Positions 32,263 through 37,793 of a DNA stretch of 37,793 nt are shown piece by piece. Each line of letters starts with the position of its first letter. Within the stretch, counting starts at the first letter, position 1. Position numbers and translations under genes: made by a program. The notes under the pieces were generated by a model that made no database searches, was not told the DNA's origin, and was given only the letters and a program-made list of their open reading frames with translations. This DNA comes from Thelocarpon superellum (Eukaryota): contig JAPEUG010000143.1 in assembly GCA_026025795.1 (NCBI GenBank), positions 1 to 37,793 on the forward strand, given 5' to 3'.

Positions 32263-34281
32263 ATGTTTGCACCAGCCGCTCCGGCGCCCCCCACATTATC
32301 CGCCACCGTCGACCCTGCGACGTCCACCCCACCGCCCACCCCGTCTGGCCGGTTGCGAGGTTTGGCTTACCTACGGCATTACACCCAGCATCTTCACGGA
32401 CACTCGACCCCGATTTCCCCGCGAAGTGCTTCTCCGAGGTCCGCGACCCAGCCATTGTCCGCCTCGCCCGAACGTCCGACCCGACGAAGGCGGGGGCAGA
32501 GTGCATCGAGATCCTCGAGTCGGCACGAGGCCGACCCCGCCGAACCTGCGAGCGACCATTTCCCGTCTGGGCCCACAAGCGCGTCGTCGCACGCCGGAGG
32601 CGATCACCGTCGACCCGGCCGGAGCTCTACCCGTCTACGATCCCGGTCCCGGCCCCGTTCGAGAACATCGCCTGCGGAAGAGGGAGCGAGCTCTTGCGGC
32701 CCGCCGCCAGGGGCCATGGTCATGGGCCGGAAGAAGACGCCGGCGGCGTCCGCGGTCACGACGACCGAGTCGACAGTGAACGACGTGGCGGCGGACCTGA
32801 GCGGTGCCACCAGCTCTCCCCAGCAACACATGCCCTCGATTCGCCTGATCCCACACCAGGACCCGCGTGCGACACGACCATCCCTCCTCTTTAGCCCCAT
32901 CTCCCGCACTCTCCCATCGCACGCCGCCGTCATCCGCGTGGGCCGGTATTCGGAGAAGGATAGTGAGCCTCCCTCGTCGACCAATACGCCCTCGGCGGCT
33001 CCGGTGGGGTTCAAGTCCAAAGTGGTCAGTCGGCGGCACTGTGAATTGTGGTGCGCCAACGGACAATGGCATATCAAGGACGTCAAGAGTTCGTCCGGCA
33101 CTTTTCTCAACCACATTCGCTTGAGTCAGCCGAATTCCGAGTCCAAGCCCTTTCCTGTCAACGACGGCGACGTCATCCAGCTGGGCATCGACTTCAAGGG
33201 CGGGGAGGAGATGATCTTCCGGTGTGTCAAGATCCGCGTGGAGTGCAACCGTGGATGGCAGAAGGCGCTCAATAATTTCAAGTGGGTTACCCTCGACCCC
33301 GCCCGTCTTGTCCCCTCCTCCCCTCCTCCCTCCTCCCCTCCTCCCCTCCTCCCCTCCTCCCCTCCTCCCCTCCTCCCCTCTTCCCTCTTCCCTCCTTTCC
33401 ATCCTCCCGCTGCTAACATGTGTCTAGCACGACCACGCACAAACGACTACGAGACCTTGCCGCTGTGACCACGGATAGTAAAGGTATCACGCCATCGTCG
33501 GAATGCTCCATCTGCCTCTTTTCGATCGCGGTAAGCCCACATCTCCAGAGAGCGATCTTGACCGATGAGGCTAACGGATCGGTTTGTTCAGCCTTGTCAA
33601 TCGCTCTTTGTCGCGCCATGTTCGCATGTCTGGCACTACAGCTGCATCCGGCCTATCCTGAACGGAACAACCTGGCCACAATTTCTCTGTCCCAATTGCC
33701 GTGCCGTCGCCGATCTCGAGGCGGAAGTAGACGAGCCCAGTGCGGACTGGGCTCGGCAGTTGAATGATGCGGACGCCGTTCCTGCCAGCCGCGACGCCGC
33801 TCTTGTGTCCACCCCCCTGGGCCCGAATGGCGAGGTTGCTCCGCCGCCGGACAAGCGTCCGGGCAAGGAGGAGCCAGAGCGACCGGCGTCGAACCTGGCG
33901 GACGCCGTGGGCGCACTAACGCTCGAGGCGACAGAGCCTGGTGACGGCGCGTCGGACCCCCCCTTACCCCTACGTGAGAGCGACTTTCCCTCTGGCACCC
34001 ACGCCCCGTCGGTGCGACCGTCGTTGGCGAGCCGGCGGTCTGACTCTGTTCAGGCGTTGGATCTAGCCGCTCCATCCACGCCGTCGGGAACTGGAACGAG
34101 CGTGCGCCAGGCCTCGCGTGAGTTGAGTGACAACTGGCTCTCCAGCGACCGCGAGACCGATGCTGCCGACACCACCGTCCACTCGCCTGATCCGCCCGGG
34201 CCTGATGGACCTTTGACGCCGACCAATGACGCGGGGCCCTTTGTCTTTGATGGGAGCGCGGGGCGGGAGGCGGAGGCCTGA
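32263..34281 (+). CDS. DMA1: FHA + RING-H2 E3 ubiquitin ligase (Dma1/Chf); introns 33282-33427, 33531-33591
   Basis: FHA 'VGRYSE...FKSKVVSRRHC...DVKSSSGTFLNHIRL...GDVIQLGIDFKGG' and RING 'ECSICLFSIA|PCQSLFVAPCSHVWHYSCIRP...FLCPNCR'. Confidence 0.93.
33312..33408 (+). repeat. (CCTCC/CCCT)n pyrimidine repeat in DMA1 intron 1
   Basis: cccctcctcccctcctccctcctcccctcctcccctcctccc... Confidence 0.85.
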
Positions 34282-34796
34282 CCAGGCATCTTGGACGATC
34301 CGGTCGTGGTCCGCGAATGTCATCTGCGGGTCGAAGCTTGTACGATAGTTCCGTTGTGCCTTGGTGCATACCTTGATGTACGGAAGCTGCTTACCCTACG
34401 GCGTATGATTACAAGGGAAGGGAGGGCAGCGATTGGGCGCACGGCGAGGCCAAGAGAGCTCGAAGACGGCCCGAATTCTGTGTACTCGGTAATTAGGCAT
34501 GTTCCGCGACTGGTCACGTGCGTCAACTTCTCTGCATGTCAGTGTCTCTGGCTGGACTCCCGACCGCCACGGCTGCGGAGGATGCCGCAGGCTCAGTGTC
34601 TTAGGCTGTCGGACCAGTAGTCAGCCGGAGTAAAATGTTGCAACGGTCGTGCCTTCCCTTCCTCTCCCGTCACCTCACTGACCCTCCATCGTCGCGGCGT
34701 ATGCTCTGTCGGAGCCACCGTCGATGGCGTGAGGTCATCAGCATCACCTTCTAGCCTCGTTGCATCCTCGAGCCCGCTCCACGCGAGCCAGGCACC

Positions 34797-36416
34797 ATGA
34801 CGGACAAGCTCCCGCCCAATCTCCTGGCGCTCTTTGCACCACGCCCGGCGCTCCGCTACCTCCCTCCCATCGACCAAGCTCCCGAAGCCCGCACGACACC
34901 AACCATCACGCCCGTCGCGCAGTACTTGGACCAGCTCCATCAACCCGATGATTACGTCCCCACCGAGAGCTGGCTCCAGCGACGCGACCGACTCAAGCTC
35001 GAGAAGCAGCAGAAGCATGAGAAGCTGATGACGGAGGGTTTTACGGCCTGTACGAACCCCCTCTTTCCATCCCGCCACCGGGAGGAAGAAGGCTGACGTC
35101 GCTTGCCCCGACCGCAGTCAAACCTGATAAAGATCCTCAAGTGCGCGGTGACGCGTTGAAGACTCTCTTTGTCGCGCGCCTCAGTTACGATGCCAAAGAA
35201 TCGGACCTCGAGCGAGAATTCGGCCGCTTTGGGCCCATTGAGCGCGTGAGACATCACCACCTTACCTTGACGATCTCGTGAAAGGCGGGATGGTGACTGA
35301 TGATCGATCGCATAGATCCGCATCGTCGCCAACGCCCATGACACCGACGCCAGCGATAAGAAGAAAAAGAAGAAGCATCGCGGCTACGCCTTCATCGTGT
35401 ATGAACGCGAGAAGGATATGAAGGGTAATCCCCCCTCCCCTCCTGAGTTCCACCGAGTGAGACCCCGCGGCGCAGACATGCGTGTGGTGGAAGCCATGTT
35501 CGCCTGTGCACATCTCCGGCCACCACGCTCTCCCTTCGCATGAGGTTTGACTGACACGTGGGCCTACTCCCTTGCGCGACGTCTAGCTGCCTACAAAGAA
35601 ACGGATGGCATTCGCATCAAAGATCGACGCGTGATGGTCGACGTCGAGCGCGGACGTCTGACCCCAGGTTGGAAGCCACGCAGGTTCGGTGGTGGATTGG
35701 GCGGTCGTGGCTACACCAAAGCAGCACCCCCCCGACCGAGTGGTCCCGGCGGCTTTGGGCCGCCTGCTGGTCCCGGCGGCTTCCGTGGCGGCTTCCGAGG
35801 TGGCTTCGGCGGTCGCGGAGGCTTCCGCGGCGACGGCGGCTTTGGTCGGGGCGGCGGCGGCGGTGGCGGTGGCGGATATGGTGGAGGGCGAGGCGGAATC
35901 GGCTACCAAGGTGGTCGTGGCGACTATGGCCGCGGTGGATACGGCGGCCAGAGCAACGGACACGCCAACGGACAGCCTCCGCCTAATGCCCCGTCAGGCC
36001 CTGGCGGTGGCCGAGGTGGCGGCTTTGGCTCGGGTGGGTATGGCGACGGCGGTCCCAACGGCTCGCCCGGCGGCGGTGGTGGGTATGGAGACGCTCGCGG
36101 CGGCCGCTCATATGATGACAGGGGATACGCGCCCCGTGGCGGCCGCGGCTACGGCGACCGTGGCGATGGGCGATCGGGCGGGGGGAGTGGAAGCAATCGG
36201 GAGCCGGTAAGGCCGAGAGACGGAGGCTACCGCGACCGTGACCGTGATCGTGATCGCGACCGAGATCGTGACCAGGGTCGTGATCGCGACCGTGACCGGG
36301 ATCGAGATCGGGATGGGGAACACGGCAGCCGACACCGAGATGATGACTACTCCAGCAGGAAGAGAACGCACGACGGTGACAGCCATGACGATCCTCGTCA
36401 GCGCAGAAGGTATTAG
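34797..36416 (+). CDS. SNP1: U1 snRNP 70K protein; introns 35050-35117, 35246-35315, 35425-35586
   Basis: '[21 protein letters not shown]...[14 protein letters not shown]...[13 protein letters not shown]...[52 protein letters not shown]', followed by RGG and RD-repeat tails. Confidence 0.96.
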
Positions 36417-37085
36417 GCTGATGTCCTTACATTGGAACCCTCATCATCCGAGTCTCGTCACCCAGCAGCTTCGGCCATGGGTCCGGGCCCAAGGAGCCTC
36501 GAGGGTAAGCCCATCTGGATGGATGCCGTGACCTTTCGCCTCCTTTCGATTTCGCGTGCGTGGTGCACGCACTCGGACCATCGTCTGTCCGGCCTCACTC
36601 GGTCTCATCGATCATTGGACGCCCATCCGAGCTCTTTCGCACTCCAGGCCTCCTCCGCTGACAGTATGACGGGCCGTGGGATGCCATGGTAACTGTCAAT
36701 TAATGCTGACTGCTGGCGCGCGTCTTCTCCCTTTCTTTGGTAAGTAGATAGCAGAGCCTGCGATGAGGCAGGCATGGCCCTGAAAGGCCTGCCACGCCAG
36801 AGGTAGGACGACGTGCTCTCTTGTGAGGTCTCTATGGCGAGACATGTGCTAGCGTGATGCGCGACTGTTGGCTCCTTCGCCTTTTTCCTTATGATGTGTT
36901 ACCAGTATTTGACTTGTGGAACGTCATCTCGGGGTAAGCCGCCGTTCCCCCCTCCGCTATGTAGAATCCCATTTTTCCTCATCACGTCGTGGCTTTCAAG
37001 TCGTTGAATTGTACATTACAAGCATGGTGGTGGTTGTGTTCGTCTTCTGAGACGTATCCCGTGCCCCGTCCCGTCCCGTGCGGCA

Positions 37086-37793
37086 TCATTCCTCCATAGC
37101 ATCTATCCGTGTGACCTCGGTGGTTGCGGCACTCCAGTACCTATAGATGATCCGTCAGTCAGGACCGGTCTAGTTCAGGGTTCGAGGCTGAGCGGCCGGA
37201 GGACTTACGCCAGAAGCTGGACTCGAAACTCCGCCGTCTGCACCCCGAACATCTTGAGCAGTCTCGTCTGCTTGCTGTCCAGGACGTCTCCTTCGCGACA
37301 TACGACATGCTCGGCGCTCAATTGCACCTTGCCCTTGACCAAACTCGACGCTACCCCGAGTGCTCGAAGCGTCGGCTCAAGTGAGTGGGCCAGGGGCACA
37401 TCCTCCTCCGGGTCAATCTCCCCTGCGCGCGAATATACGGTGCCGGCGGGTATGGTAAATGTGCGGGTGCTGGTCGTCCCCGCCCGCGCGTAGTCGGCCG
37501 GGACGTAGGTGGCAAAGAAGTCGATGATGGATTGTGGTTCTTGAGATGTGAAGAGTAGTCCCACGTCGCCTACGAGATACTATAGGGTCTCTCAGTAATT
37601 GTGACCATATGCTAGCCATACCTGCCTTCTCCTGCTCACCTCTGACAGTTGGGACAAGTTCGGTAGGTGCTCGTCTTCCGCCCGCGACCCCAATGCCTTC
37701 GCCATGACCTTGGTTTTGCCAAAGAACAGCCTGTGGTGATGGTGGGCAAGTCAGATAGGATCCCACGTGATGCAATCGAGGGAAGATGCAATG
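37086..37793 (-). CDS. MRT4: mRNA turnover/ribosome assembly factor Mrt4 (3' part; 5' end lies outside the window)
   Basis: 'LFFGKTKVMAKALG...GDVGLLFTSQEPQ...DYARAG...LAHSLEPTLRALG...LVKGKV...VCREGDVLDSKQTRLLKMFG...LLA|YWSAATTEV...MEE*'. Confidence 0.92.

Follow-up and report, generated by a model that had tools for sequence, protein, structure and literature searches.

A putative array of U1-complementary pseudo-5' splice sites in the terminal exon of the U1-70K gene of Thelocarpon superellum and other filamentous ascomycetes

Downstream of the U1-70K gene of the fungus Thelocarpon superellum lies a cluster of 5' splice site-like motifs (positions 36410-36945), which, on balance, we regard as a partly eroded version of an array of U1-complementary pseudo-5' splice sites that occupies the terminal exon of this gene in filamentous ascomycetes and would confer negative feedback. 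Comparison of orthologous loci makes it very probable that the U1-complementary array is under selection. That the array serves the autoregulation of U1-70K and the U1 snRNP appears fairly likely, and the proposal that its effector step is independent of splicing is a tentative one, which we hold to be somewhat less probable than its opposite. The original prediction, made from the letters of this DNA, was a U1-sensing autoregulatory element. A selected U1-complementary element is indeed well supported, both by GTAAG motifs in orthologues and by the motif GGTGGGTAT; autoregulation we still infer, as is natural for a selected element with predicted U1 binding that sits in the mRNA for U1-70K itself.

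The U1-70K locus and its predicted U1 sites

The analysed stretch (the window), which is G+C-rich, comprises 37,793 nt of T. superellum contig JAPEUG010000143.1 (GCA_026025795.1). The spliced U1-70K model has an intact open reading frame, with introns of 68-162 nt, and encodes a 439 aa product with 668 homologues (E<=1e-3) that carry U1-70K N-terminal and RRM Pfam domains. Its tail, which is RD/RG-rich in the fungal protein, ends in ...DDPRQRRRY before a TAG stop at 36414-36416. This ...RRY* C-terminus is common to all 60 homologues whose ends were inspected, which shows that this is the terminal coding exon. The convergent neighbour is MRT4, whose stop (TGA) lies at 37086-37088; the peptide encoded by its last exon corresponds to MRT4 C-termini from three orthologous loci (L011, L068, L049; L-numbers denote U1-70K loci from metagenomes). 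The two stop positions leave a gap of 669 nt, in agreement with the predicted ~670 bp.

Site strength was taken as the predicted duplex energy with the U1 5' end, for which a sequence was assumed rather than taken from these genomes, and sites at <=-8.5 kcal/mol were considered strong. The features of the locus, including the sites labelled S1 to S4, are as follows:

34797..36416, forward strand: coding part of U1-70K (exons 34797-35049, 35118-35245, 35316-35424 and 35587-36416)
36407..36416, forward strand: AAG/GTATTAG (site 36410), formed by the codons AGG TAT TAG of ...RRY*; weak, -5.7 kcal/mol
36502..36510, forward strand: S1, AGG/GTAAGC (site 36505), 89 nt past the stop; -8.9 kcal/mol; first conserved 3'UTR site
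36664..36697, forward strand: sites 36664 (GTATGA) and 36689 (GTAACT); weak, -2.9 and -5.0 kcal/mol
36705..36738, forward strand: branch-like motif GCTGAC (36705-36710) and pyrimidine tract (36723-36738), immediately 5' of S2
36737..36747, forward strand: S2, TTG/GTAAGTAG (site 36740), 324 nt past the stop; -10.7 kcal/mol, the strongest 3' site listed for the window
36767..36793, forward strand: inverted repeat GGCAGGC...GCCTGCC, at the aligned place of the tandem S3 of relatives (AG/GTAAGRYCRG/GTAAGR), which is eroded here
36800..36808, forward strand: S3 remnant, GAG/GTAGGA (site 36803), 387 nt past the stop; -9.3 kcal/mol
36931..36939, forward strand: S4, GGG/GTAAGC (site 36934), 518 nt past the stop; -9.2 kcal/mol; last site of the array
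37086..37564, reverse strand: convergent 3' part of MRT4 (exon to 37209, intron 37141-37208, final exon 37140-37086)

All seven donor-like motifs of the predicted cluster are found where they had been placed, and the same holds for the motif GCTGAC (36705), the pyrimidine tract (36723) and the GGCAGGC arm (36767). However, only four of the seven are strong (36505, 36740, 36803 and 36934), and the other three add nothing to the cluster. Site 36410 is not a free motif, because the conserved Arg-Tyr-stop codons produce GTATTAG, and alignment identified no orthologous counterpart of sites 36664 and 36689. The claim that several motifs match U1 better than real donors holds for the four donors that could be defined, namely those of the U1-70K introns (-0.7, -4.7 and -6.0 kcal/mol) and of the last MRT4 intron (-6.4 kcal/mol). 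The hairpin at 36767-36793, which had been listed as part of the element, proved unremarkable (fold z = -1.8; 11 of 200 shuffles fold equally well).

Searches for other functions of the region returned little. At the gathering score, Rfam gave no match in the window or in 11 orthologous loci, and the two sub-threshold matches within 36300-37250 were judged to be chance. No tRNA was found in the window, and none of the 30 stop-to-stop frames (>=20 aa) in the gap appeared coding-like on visual inspection.

Within the gap, four strong sites occur on the sense strand and none on the antisense strand, against a density elsewhere of 0.91 per kb and strand, which corresponds to ~0.6 expected. Four strong sites are reached in 25 of 2970 sliding windows, at two places. 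A plain count of 9-mer donor-consensus matches (>=6/9) was discarded as evidence for the cluster: the gap has five such sites where the mean is 2.13, and five are reached by 7.3% of equal-size windows, which is not significant. Given the post-hoc choice of the region, the cluster of the window alone is statistically marginal; it takes the orthologue data to make the enrichment convincing.

Conservation in orthologous 3' regions and coding sequences

We fetched 79 U1-70K loci, of which 39 had an identified stop and were reduced to 27 lineage representatives. The remaining 40 lacked an identifiable ...RRY-type stop and were left out, either because the contig ended first or because they belong to other eukaryotes, including a plant-like group, L044-L078. 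The U1-70K of L001 ends in RRYD*.

A search for conserved GTAAG clusters across U1-70K 3' regions of Pezizomycotina, proposed with the original prediction, is strongly positive in these 27 metagenome lineages. In the 700 nt past the stop, the sense strand has 92 GTAAG and the antisense strand 12; for GGTAAG the counts are 78 and 4, respectively. The sense count of GTAAG exceeds the antisense count in 24 of 27 lineages (Wilcoxon p = 1.4e-5), with a mean of 3.4 copies per 700 nt and at least three copies in 19 of 27. By comparison, 372 further stretches of 700 nt taken from these loci contain 0.39 copies on average, with only three of them reaching three copies, and 18 regions 3' of other long ORFs contain 0.22. 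The density of GTAAG, which has a background of ~0.2-0.6 per kb, climbs at the stop codon and is bimodal, with peaks at 0-200 and 300-600 nt, before it falls to background past +700. Among 95 GTAAG sites, position -1 is G in 84%, a flank consistent with pairing to U1. The lineage L010 has no GTAAG at all, and its transcript relative L013 has one. MRT4 is convergent and downstream of U1-70K in L001, L004-6, L011, L049 and L068, as in the window; since the array is present whether or not MRT4 follows, it tracks U1-70K and not the neighbouring gene.

Individual sites recur as well. In 23 of the 27 lineage representatives, the first 220 nt past the stop contain a GTAAG, the counterpart of S1, often as the same AGG/GTAAGCC. 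The S2 position reads G/GTAAGTATGTA in orthologues, where S2 is often GTAAGTATGTA, and S2 of the window aligns with the block ...ttccattGGTAAGTAtgccGCAGAG of L011; the pyrimidine tract 5' of it is seen again in L011, L004, L014, L034 and L043. Tandem GTAAG pairs of the S3 type are present on the sense strand in 14 of 27 lineages and on the antisense strand in none, and late sites comparable to S4 lie at +477 in L004, +417 in L011 and +509 in L014. A further conserved block, S0, reaches past the U1-pairing core and reads GGTTTGTTGGTGGGTAT in several lineages. A purine-purine test at +3/+4 within GGTnnGT was uninformative, being confounded by the GGTTTGT part of S0.

The window copy of this arrangement is sparse, with three GTAAG, a faint S0 and no tandem S3. 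The order and spacing of its sites (+89, +324, +387, +518) parallel those of L011 (+72, +269, +314/324, +417) and of L004. A profile built with nhmmer from eight orthologous 3' regions did not match the window region, and its best matches were at chance level (E >= 1); homology between the window and the orthologues therefore consists in motif content and order rather than in alignable sequence. A MAFFT alignment of seven sequences was mostly unreliable except for the S1, S2 and S3 blocks.

Three further predicted U1 sites lie within the last coding exon of the window:

36033..36041, forward strand: GGTGGGTAT in Gly-Gly-Tyr codons; predicted duplex -13.4 kcal/mol
36078..36086, forward strand: second GGTGGGTAT in Gly-Gly-Tyr codons; predicted duplex -11.0 kcal/mol
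36204..36212, forward strand: CCG/GTAAGG in the Pro-Val-Arg codons of the conserved NREPVRPR; clade-specific donor-like site, -8.7 kcal/mol

The motif GGTGGGTAT is predicted to pair with nine positions of the U1 5' end, including two G.U wobbles. Across 31 lineages, 38 of 115 Gly-Gly-Tyr tripeptides are encoded by GGT GGG TAT, compared with 1.5 expected. After GGTGGG, the Tyr codon is TAT in 38 cases and TAC in 12, whereas overall TAC is the commoner codon (223 vs 180). On the sense strand, 45 copies of GGTGGGTAT fall within -900..+700, as against one copy in 231.9 kb elsewhere. It is thus well supported that GGTGGGTAT represents a second, wobble-compatible class of predicted U1-pairing motif. 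The CCG GTA AGR codons are common to the window, L003, L012, L004-6, L011 and L014/15/17; other lineages encode the same Val-Arg dipeptide with GTC/GTG/GTT and AGG/CGN. A duplex-energy profile also peaks in the coding sequence, but such scans are prone to composition effects and biased to G-rich coding sequence. As this peak is weak by itself, the extension of the array into the coding sequence rests on the codon test for Gly-Gly-Tyr.

Spliced or unspliced use of the array

In the mechanism that we propose, the array would begin within the final ~400 coding nucleotides, with GGUGGGUAU in Gly-Gly-Tyr codons and, in the clade of the window, also CCG/GUAAGR in Pro-Val-Arg codons, and would go on through ~600-700 nt of 3'UTR as S0 (UGGUGGGUAU type), S1, S2, the tandem S3 and S4. 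The U1 snRNP would base-pair with these sites, and because most of them appear to have no partner branch point, they would serve mainly as non-spliced landing sites. Bound U1 would then lower the amount of exportable mRNA, either because cleavage and polyadenylation are blocked or because the mRNA is kept in the nucleus and degraded. The level of U1-70K mRNA would fall as functional U1 snRNP rises, which amounts to negative feedback. A few sites lie just 3' of a pyrimidine tract and an AG and may also be spliced, yielding NMD-prone isoforms. That fungi use U1-70K-dependent inhibition of polyadenylation or 5' splice site-dependent nuclear retention is assumed here from work in animals.

Several observations bear on whether the sites are spliced. 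Branch-point motifs are not enriched in the orthologous 3' regions: CTRAC occurs 18 times on the sense strand, as against 97 GTAAG, with densities of 0.93 per kb sense, 1.66 per kb antisense and 1.28 per kb in controls. At position +6, just 16% of GTAAG sites have T. The transcript-derived contig L013 is without the coding-sequence introns of its genomic relative L010, and its 3' region is colinear with that of L010 over at least 882 nt, with the donor-like motifs retained. Beyond the stop, transcript-like contigs continue for at least 516, 841 and 882 nt, and the array is contiguous with the coding sequence there. The branch-motif result and L013 lean towards a non-spliced U1-binding role rather than towards 3'UTR splicing and NMD. 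The original prediction had left a choice between 3'UTR splicing with NMD and the selection of poly(A) sites; these two results lean away from its splicing arm and towards an unspliced role, which includes the poly(A) idea.

Nevertheless, a splicing switch like that of vertebrates could be the main effector, an alternative that we consider unlikely although it has several points in its favor. U1 would here activate adjacent 3' splice sites, or its site would itself serve as a donor, and removal of part of the 3'UTR, for example from 36505 to an AG at 36744-36754, would leave an exon junction 3' of the stop and thereby trigger EJC-dependent NMD. Such a switch would account for the pyrimidine tract, often with an AG, that directly precedes S1 and S2 in many loci, for the order of GCTGAC (36705), tract and S2 in the window, and for a short intron-like unit after the tandem S3 in L004, L014, L049 and L056, where a CTGAC/CTAAC-type motif follows 30-40 nt on, together with an AG. 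The corresponding candidate intron in the window (donor 36505, branch-like motif 36705, tract 36723-36738, AGs 36744-36754) would measure ~240 nt, which is long compared with the 68-162 nt of the coding-sequence introns. The human gene has such a cluster beside an alternative 3' splice site (PMC3798272), and the EJC participates in NMD in Neurospora (PMC6173133, citing Zhang & Sachs 2015). A splicing switch is at odds with the unenriched branch-point motifs, the rarity of T at +6, the in-CDS sites, which have no evident partner, and the unspliced 3'UTR of L013, the sole demonstrable transcript contig. The absence of spliced forms among the contigs says little, however, since NMD-prone isoforms would be too scarce to be assembled.

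It is improbable, in our view, that the motifs are selected for something other than sensing the level of U1. Conservation demonstrates selection and not purpose, and GGUAAG and GGUGGGUAU might be bound by another factor, for which the width of S0 beyond the U1-pairing core would offer a possible protein site. Alternatively, U1 might be recruited for mRNA localisation, for co-translational assembly of U1-70K with 70K-deficient U1, or for suppression of premature cleavage, resulting in a long 3'UTR. Yet the two motif classes are alike only in pairing with the same U1 positions, with wobble-compatible A-to-G changes at +3/+4 and a preference for AU at +7/+8, and feedback is the economical reading because the array sits in a gene that encodes a U1 snRNP core protein. 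Least probable of all is an ordinary region, with constitutive 3'UTR introns, an unannotated small gene or non-coding RNA between the two stops, chance motifs in convergent 3'UTRs or, in the window, a decayed non-functional remnant: the marginal statistics, the lost tandem site and the lack of alignable homology would suit it in the window, but for the family as a whole it is already largely refuted by the orthologue statistics and controls, the empty Rfam and tRNA searches, the frames judged non-coding by eye, the contiguity of the array with the coding sequence in transcript-like contigs and its association with U1-70K rather than with the neighbour.

Known systems and biological meaning

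The closest known counterpart is exon 7a of vertebrate SNRNP70, where a cluster of cryptic 5' splice sites binds U1 snRNP additively and lowers U1-70K mRNA (Rosel-Hillgartner et al, 2013; PMC3798272). These sites are located in intron 7 and delimit a poison exon in which a premature stop occurs, and conservation is reported only among vertebrates (PMC3798272). The two systems share the gene family, several U1-type sites and a 3' splice site-like sequence just upstream; feedback on U1 snRNP composition by down-regulation of U1-70K is demonstrated for exon 7a and proposed for the fungal array. Like exon 7a, the window has a cluster of U1-type sites in the U1-70K gene, with four sites at <=-8.5 kcal/mol and predicted binding. 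Unlike the intronic cluster and its poison exon, as described there, the fungal array is placed 3' of the normal stop and in the final ~400 coding nucleotides; it belongs to the terminal exon and in part overlaps the reading frame of the protein. It also has more sites (a mean of 3.4 GTAAG per 700 nt plus the GGTGGGTAT copies) and no enrichment of branch points.

When U1 snRNP occupies a terminal-exon 5' splice site, it inhibits cleavage and polyadenylation, as in the late 3'UTR of papillomavirus. A contact between U1-70K and poly(A) polymerase was reportedly described by Gunderson and colleagues in 1998, and a terminal-exon U1 site is said to have been treated in the context of polyadenylation inhibition by Vagner and colleagues in 2000 (cited in PMC11315920). 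The fungal array resembles this system in having U1-complementary sites in the last exon, by predicted pairing, several in a row and putatively unspliced, and the effector there is U1-70K itself. The system comes from animal cells and viruses, in contrast to the fungal setting, and we know of no demonstration of terminal-exon polyadenylation inhibition by U1 in fungi. Another U1 snRNP protein, U1A, regulates itself through a polyadenylation-inhibition element in its own 3'UTR, where it binds a mimic of its snRNA stem-loop. U1A, a U1 snRNP protein, curbs its own mRNA by way of the 3'UTR, as is proposed for U1-70K with the fungal array. The latter, however, imitates a 5' splice site, on which the snRNA acts, and would therefore sense the whole particle rather than free protein.

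An intact 5' splice site motif in an mRNA can also lead to nuclear retention and decay, a process that needs ZFC3H1 as well as U1-70K (Lee et al, 2022; PMC9074902). As in the mechanism proposed for the fungal array, an unspliced 5' splice site in mature mRNA acts there via U1 snRNP and U1-70K. That work deals with quality control in human reporters and intronic-polyadenylated transcripts and not with a dedicated U1-70K array, and its relevance to fungi is presumed. In Neurospora, NMD that depends on a 3'UTR intron and the EJC has been described (Zhang & Sachs, 2015, via PMC6173133). The likeness would be that fungal mRNAs for RNA-processing factors are controlled by splicing 3' of the stop; the difference is that a single ordinary intron is involved there, whereas the fungal array has multiple sites, mostly without branch points, and extends into the coding sequence. 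Our literature search, which covered articles without their supplements, found no description of a site array in the 3'UTR or terminal exon of a fungal U1-70K gene.

The boldest reading of these results is that of an ancient U1 snRNP homeostat of filamentous ascomycetes, in which 5-10 pseudo-5' splice sites, some imposed on Gly-Gly-Tyr and Pro-Val-Arg codons, would count free U1 and throttle the mRNA while remaining unspliced, as a convergent or ancestral counterpart of exon 7a. We consider this full reading plausible, although we would put its chances just short of even. To our knowledge, vertebrates are the only group in which it is understood how U1 snRNP is kept constant in amount and composition, by means of the 3'UTR element of U1A and the exon-7a cluster of U1-70K. 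L001, whose U1-70K tail is Penicillium-like, has the full layout, and models of the Aspergillus or Penicillium type should therefore be suitable. Since GGT GGG TAT is used 25 times as often as expected, synonymous recoding of U1-70K could alter its regulation, and the array, if it acts as proposed, would show plainly how a signal at the RNA level can constrain synonymous sites of the regulated protein. It would also be the first sign of a splicing-independent repressive function of U1 in fungi, where such functions in 3'-end formation or nuclear retention would then exist but have hardly been examined. Finally, if the array works in this way, decoy 5' splice sites that sense U1 from within the U1-70K gene would represent either a recurrent or a very old solution.

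Predicted U1 sites in the U1-70K/MRT4 gap

The U1-70K gene of the window faces a convergent MRT4 gene, and the gap between their stops measures 669 nt, in agreement with the original prediction. A protein search returned 668 U1-70K homologues (E ≤ 1e-3), the best of which, from ascomycetes that are lichen-forming or related to such fungi, match the last exon at 57–58% identity. The nearest named protein in a local BLAST, from Candelina mexicana (class Candelariomycetes), reaches only 66% across this exon; the source organism is thus a filamentous ascomycete without close sampling. The peptide of the last MRT4 exon matches the MRT4 ends in three metagenome loci that encode U1-70K relatives (L011, L068 and L049). 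The convergent pair is kept in several lineages (window 37086–37564, minus strand; L001, L004–6, L011, L049, L068), with long inter-stop gaps of ~520 to 1170 nt across L011, L068 and L049. MRT4 of the window carries an additional intron (37141–37208) immediately ahead of its final 18 codons, which L011 lacks. Upstream of U1-70K, a plus-strand ORF (33565–34281) has a Cys/His pattern that by eye resembles a RING-type zinc finger (CSICLF...CSHVWHYSC...CPNCR). No Rfam family was found in the window or the gap region and no tRNA in the window, and, inspected by eye, no stop-to-stop frame in the gap (30 in all) looks coding.

All seven donor-like strings that had been listed for this region are present. 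We ranked them by the predicted energy of pairing to the U1 snRNA 5′ end, using an 11-nt motif that we take to be this end and that may differ from the one in this genome.

Features of the U1-70K/MRT4 region, with predicted duplex energies and positions in the array (S0 to S4, successive U1-complementary sites downstream of the stop)
34797–35049, 35118–35245, 35316–35424, 35587–36416, plus strand: four U1-70K coding exons (product 439 aa)
36033, plus strand: strong site GGTGGGTAT within the U1-70K CDS
36078, plus strand: strong site GGTGGGTAT within the U1-70K CDS
36410, plus strand: weak predicted U1 site, −5.7 kcal/mol
+62 after the stop, plus strand: S0, ATGGGTCC, faint only
36505, plus strand: strong predicted U1 site, −8.9 kcal/mol; S1 by alignment with orthologues
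36664, plus strand: weak predicted U1 site, −2.9 kcal/mol
36689, plus strand: weak predicted U1 site, −5.0 kcal/mol
36740, plus strand: strong predicted U1 site, −10.7 kcal/mol; S2, block ...tttctttGGTAAGTAgataGCAGAG, close match to L011
36803, plus strand: strong predicted U1 site, −9.3 kcal/mol; S3, GAG/GTAGGA left over from an eroded tandem
36934, plus strand: strong predicted U1 site, −9.2 kcal/mol; S4 by alignment with orthologues
37086–37088, minus strand: TGA stop of MRT4, convergent with U1-70K, in a short last exon behind the final intron 37141–37208

The claim that several motifs surpass most real donors holds for 36505, 36740, 36803 and 36934 against the four donors definable in the window (U1-70K introns, −0.7, −4.7 and −6.0 kcal/mol; last MRT4 intron, −6.4 kcal/mol). 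The weak motif at 36410 consists of the Arg-Tyr-stop codons of the C-terminal ...RRY*, an end common to all 60 homologues listed. The proposed hairpin (36767–36793) proved to be an unremarkable fold (z = −1.8), and it aligns at the position of the eroded S3 tandem.

Taken alone, the cluster in the window barely exceeds chance. The gap holds 5 donor-consensus matches (at least 6 of 9 positions) versus a mean of 2.13, a number that 7.3% of windows of this size, both strands included, attain. Duplexes of ≤−8.5 kcal/mol number 4 on the sense and 0 on the antisense strand, compared with 0.91 per kb per strand elsewhere, or ~0.6 expected in the gap; our own arithmetic gives a Poisson tail of ~0.004, uncorrected for the post hoc choice of region. 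Four such sites are reached in 25 of 2970 sliding windows, at two places, one being the U1-70K 3′ region. The sole other place with 4 predicted sites in 669 nt (33820–34396, minus strand) lies upstream of the U1-70K start, antisense to the ORF at 33565–34281; its sites are G-rich (e.g., GGGGGGTGGA) and may have a compositional origin.

A recurrent array in orthologues

Among 79 metagenome loci with U1-70K relatives, an ...RRY-type stop was identifiable in 39, the other 40 being left out as truncated by the contig end or as other eukaryotes; removal of 9 near-duplicates and of 3 loci with <300 nt downstream left 27 lineage representatives. Taxonomy of these loci is uncertain and was assigned by last-exon similarity to named proteins: some lie near Acarospora (89%; Lecanoromycetes, checked), Lepraria (84%) and Mycoblastus (80%), others near Rhinocladiella (Eurotiomycetes, checked), Exophiala and Fonsecaea (84–88%), and looser ones (58–70%) are nearest to proteins from Leotiomycetes and Dothideomycetes, a class assignment that is tentative at such identity. 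A separate group of about 25 loci (L044–L078; 62–67% identity), left out of the array counts, probably represents plants or other eukaryotes; some of its pairs resemble spliced versus genomic copies of one gene (e.g., L047/L057 versus L078).

The original prediction had proposed looking for GTAAG clusters conserved in the U1-70K 3′ regions of relatives, and these are present: within 700 nt past the stop, the 27 representatives contain 92 sense versus 12 antisense GTAAG, and 78 versus 4 GGTAAG. Sense GTAAG outnumbers antisense in 24 of 27 and equals it in 2, with the reverse in 1 (Wilcoxon p = 1.4e-5), and 19 of 27 carry at least three sense copies. By comparison, 372 other 700-nt windows from both strands of the same loci average 0.39 GTAAG, with three copies reached in 3, and regions 3′ of other ORFs of at least 250 aa average 0.22 (n = 18 only). 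GGTAAG density rises abruptly right at the U1-70K stop codon, to 5.3–6.5 per kb over 0–200 nt, followed by 1.8 at 200–300 nt, 3.3–5.4 at 300–600 nt and ≤1 beyond 700 nt.

The sites recur in the order S0 to S4. S0 is a TGGTGGGTAT-type block (GTGGGT within 220 nt past the stop in 17/27 representatives), and S1 is usually AGG/GTAAG (GTAAG within the same distance in 23/27). S2 follows a pyrimidine tract, frequently as G/GTAAGTATGTA. The S3 motif consists of two sites in tandem, AG/GTAAGRYCRG/GTAAGR; 14/27 representatives have it, versus 0/27 in antisense, and S4 lies farther downstream. The copy in the window is among the weaker ones, and an nhmmer profile of eight orthologous 3′ regions did not retrieve its region. 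What is conserved is the motifs and their order, to the exclusion of alignable sequence. A block, GACTCGTACTGG, is common to L003, L012 and L034 just 5′ of the S2/S3 sites.

Predicted U1 sites also extend into the coding sequence, where the constraints on synonymous sites give the strongest indication of RNA-level selection. Across the last exons of 31 lineages, 38 of 115 Gly-Gly-Tyr tripeptides are written GGT GGG TAT, versus only 1.5 predicted by codon usage in these exons; following GGTGGG, Tyr is TAT 38 times and TAC 12 times, whereas TAC is commoner overall (223 versus 180). GGTGGGTAT is predicted to pair with nine consecutive positions of the U1 5′ end, two G.U wobbles allowed, and the preferred TAT gives the final two of these pairs. 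This 9-mer has 45 sense-strand occurrences from −900 to +700 relative to the stop, and a single one in 231.9 kb elsewhere. The conserved NREPVRPR peptide in the clade of the window uses GAG CCG GTA AGR (window 36204–36212; L003, L012, L004–6, L011, L014/15/17), whereas other lineages encode the same Val-Arg by GTC/GTG/GTT with AGG/CGN. The sole common property of the GTAAG-type and GGTGGGTAT-type motifs is their fit to U1. At the level of sequence comparison, the U1-70K terminal exon is thus shown to carry a selected, strand-specific array of predicted U1-complementary sites that is confined to it.

Splicing and the vertebrate switch

The nearest known system is the exon-7a switch of U1-70K in human, mouse and zebrafish, in which use of an alternative 3′ splice site requires intact U1 snRNP together with three adjacent cryptic 5′ splice sites, and NMD degrades the resulting mRNA; the study describes conservation for vertebrates only (PMC3798272). 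The fungal array shares with it the gene, the clustered predicted U1 sites and the presumed purpose, but lacks the intronic poison-exon location, and we therefore do not count it as an exon-7a-type member. No account of it for a fungal U1-70K gene was found in the open-access main texts searched. A vertebrate-like splicing switch feeding NMD is the main rival for the effector step, and it is compatible with a splicing-independent one.

Some splicing at the sites would fit the enriched sense-strand pyrimidine tracts, the frequent AG immediately 5′ of S1 and S2, and the branch-like motif and AG within ~50 nt after tandem S3 in L004, L014, L049 and L056. Ordinary introns are disfavoured, in that CTRAC branch-point motifs are unenriched (sense 0.93 per kb versus antisense 1.66 and controls 1.28) and position +6 is T in just 16% of 95 sites. 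In addition, the 3′ region of L013 (at least 882 nt), a locus that is RNA-derived since it lacks two CDS introns found in its genomic relative L010, is colinear with L010 and retains donor-like motifs. This RNA evidence is thin because the L010/L013 lineage has the weakest array. Transcript-like L040 and L056 likewise have uninterrupted CDSs and 3′ regions of at least 516 and 841 nt that include the motifs; their transcript status is unproven, since the uninterrupted CDS in genomic contigs L029, L030 and L031 demonstrates an intron-less U1-70K lineage. These long contigs (462–468 codon ORFs) keep the 3′ array (3–4 GTAAG). The L010/L013 lineage has nearly no GTAAG, with AAG/GTAYGT ~45 nt past the stop in both, and the TAC/TGC trinucleotide repeat of its 3′UTR is long in L010 (4900–4990) but much shorter in L013.

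Putative feedback on U1-70K

We favour a splicing-independent effector step, which would be either a block to cleavage/polyadenylation or nuclear retention and decay. The former is known in animal cells, where it reportedly needs U1-70K (Gunderson 1998; Vagner 2000). The latter is also known there and needs U1-70K, according to Lee et al (2022; PMC9074902). In the fungal gene, U1 snRNP would bind the array sites and their occupancy would reduce U1-70K mRNA output, so that the array would exert negative feedback.
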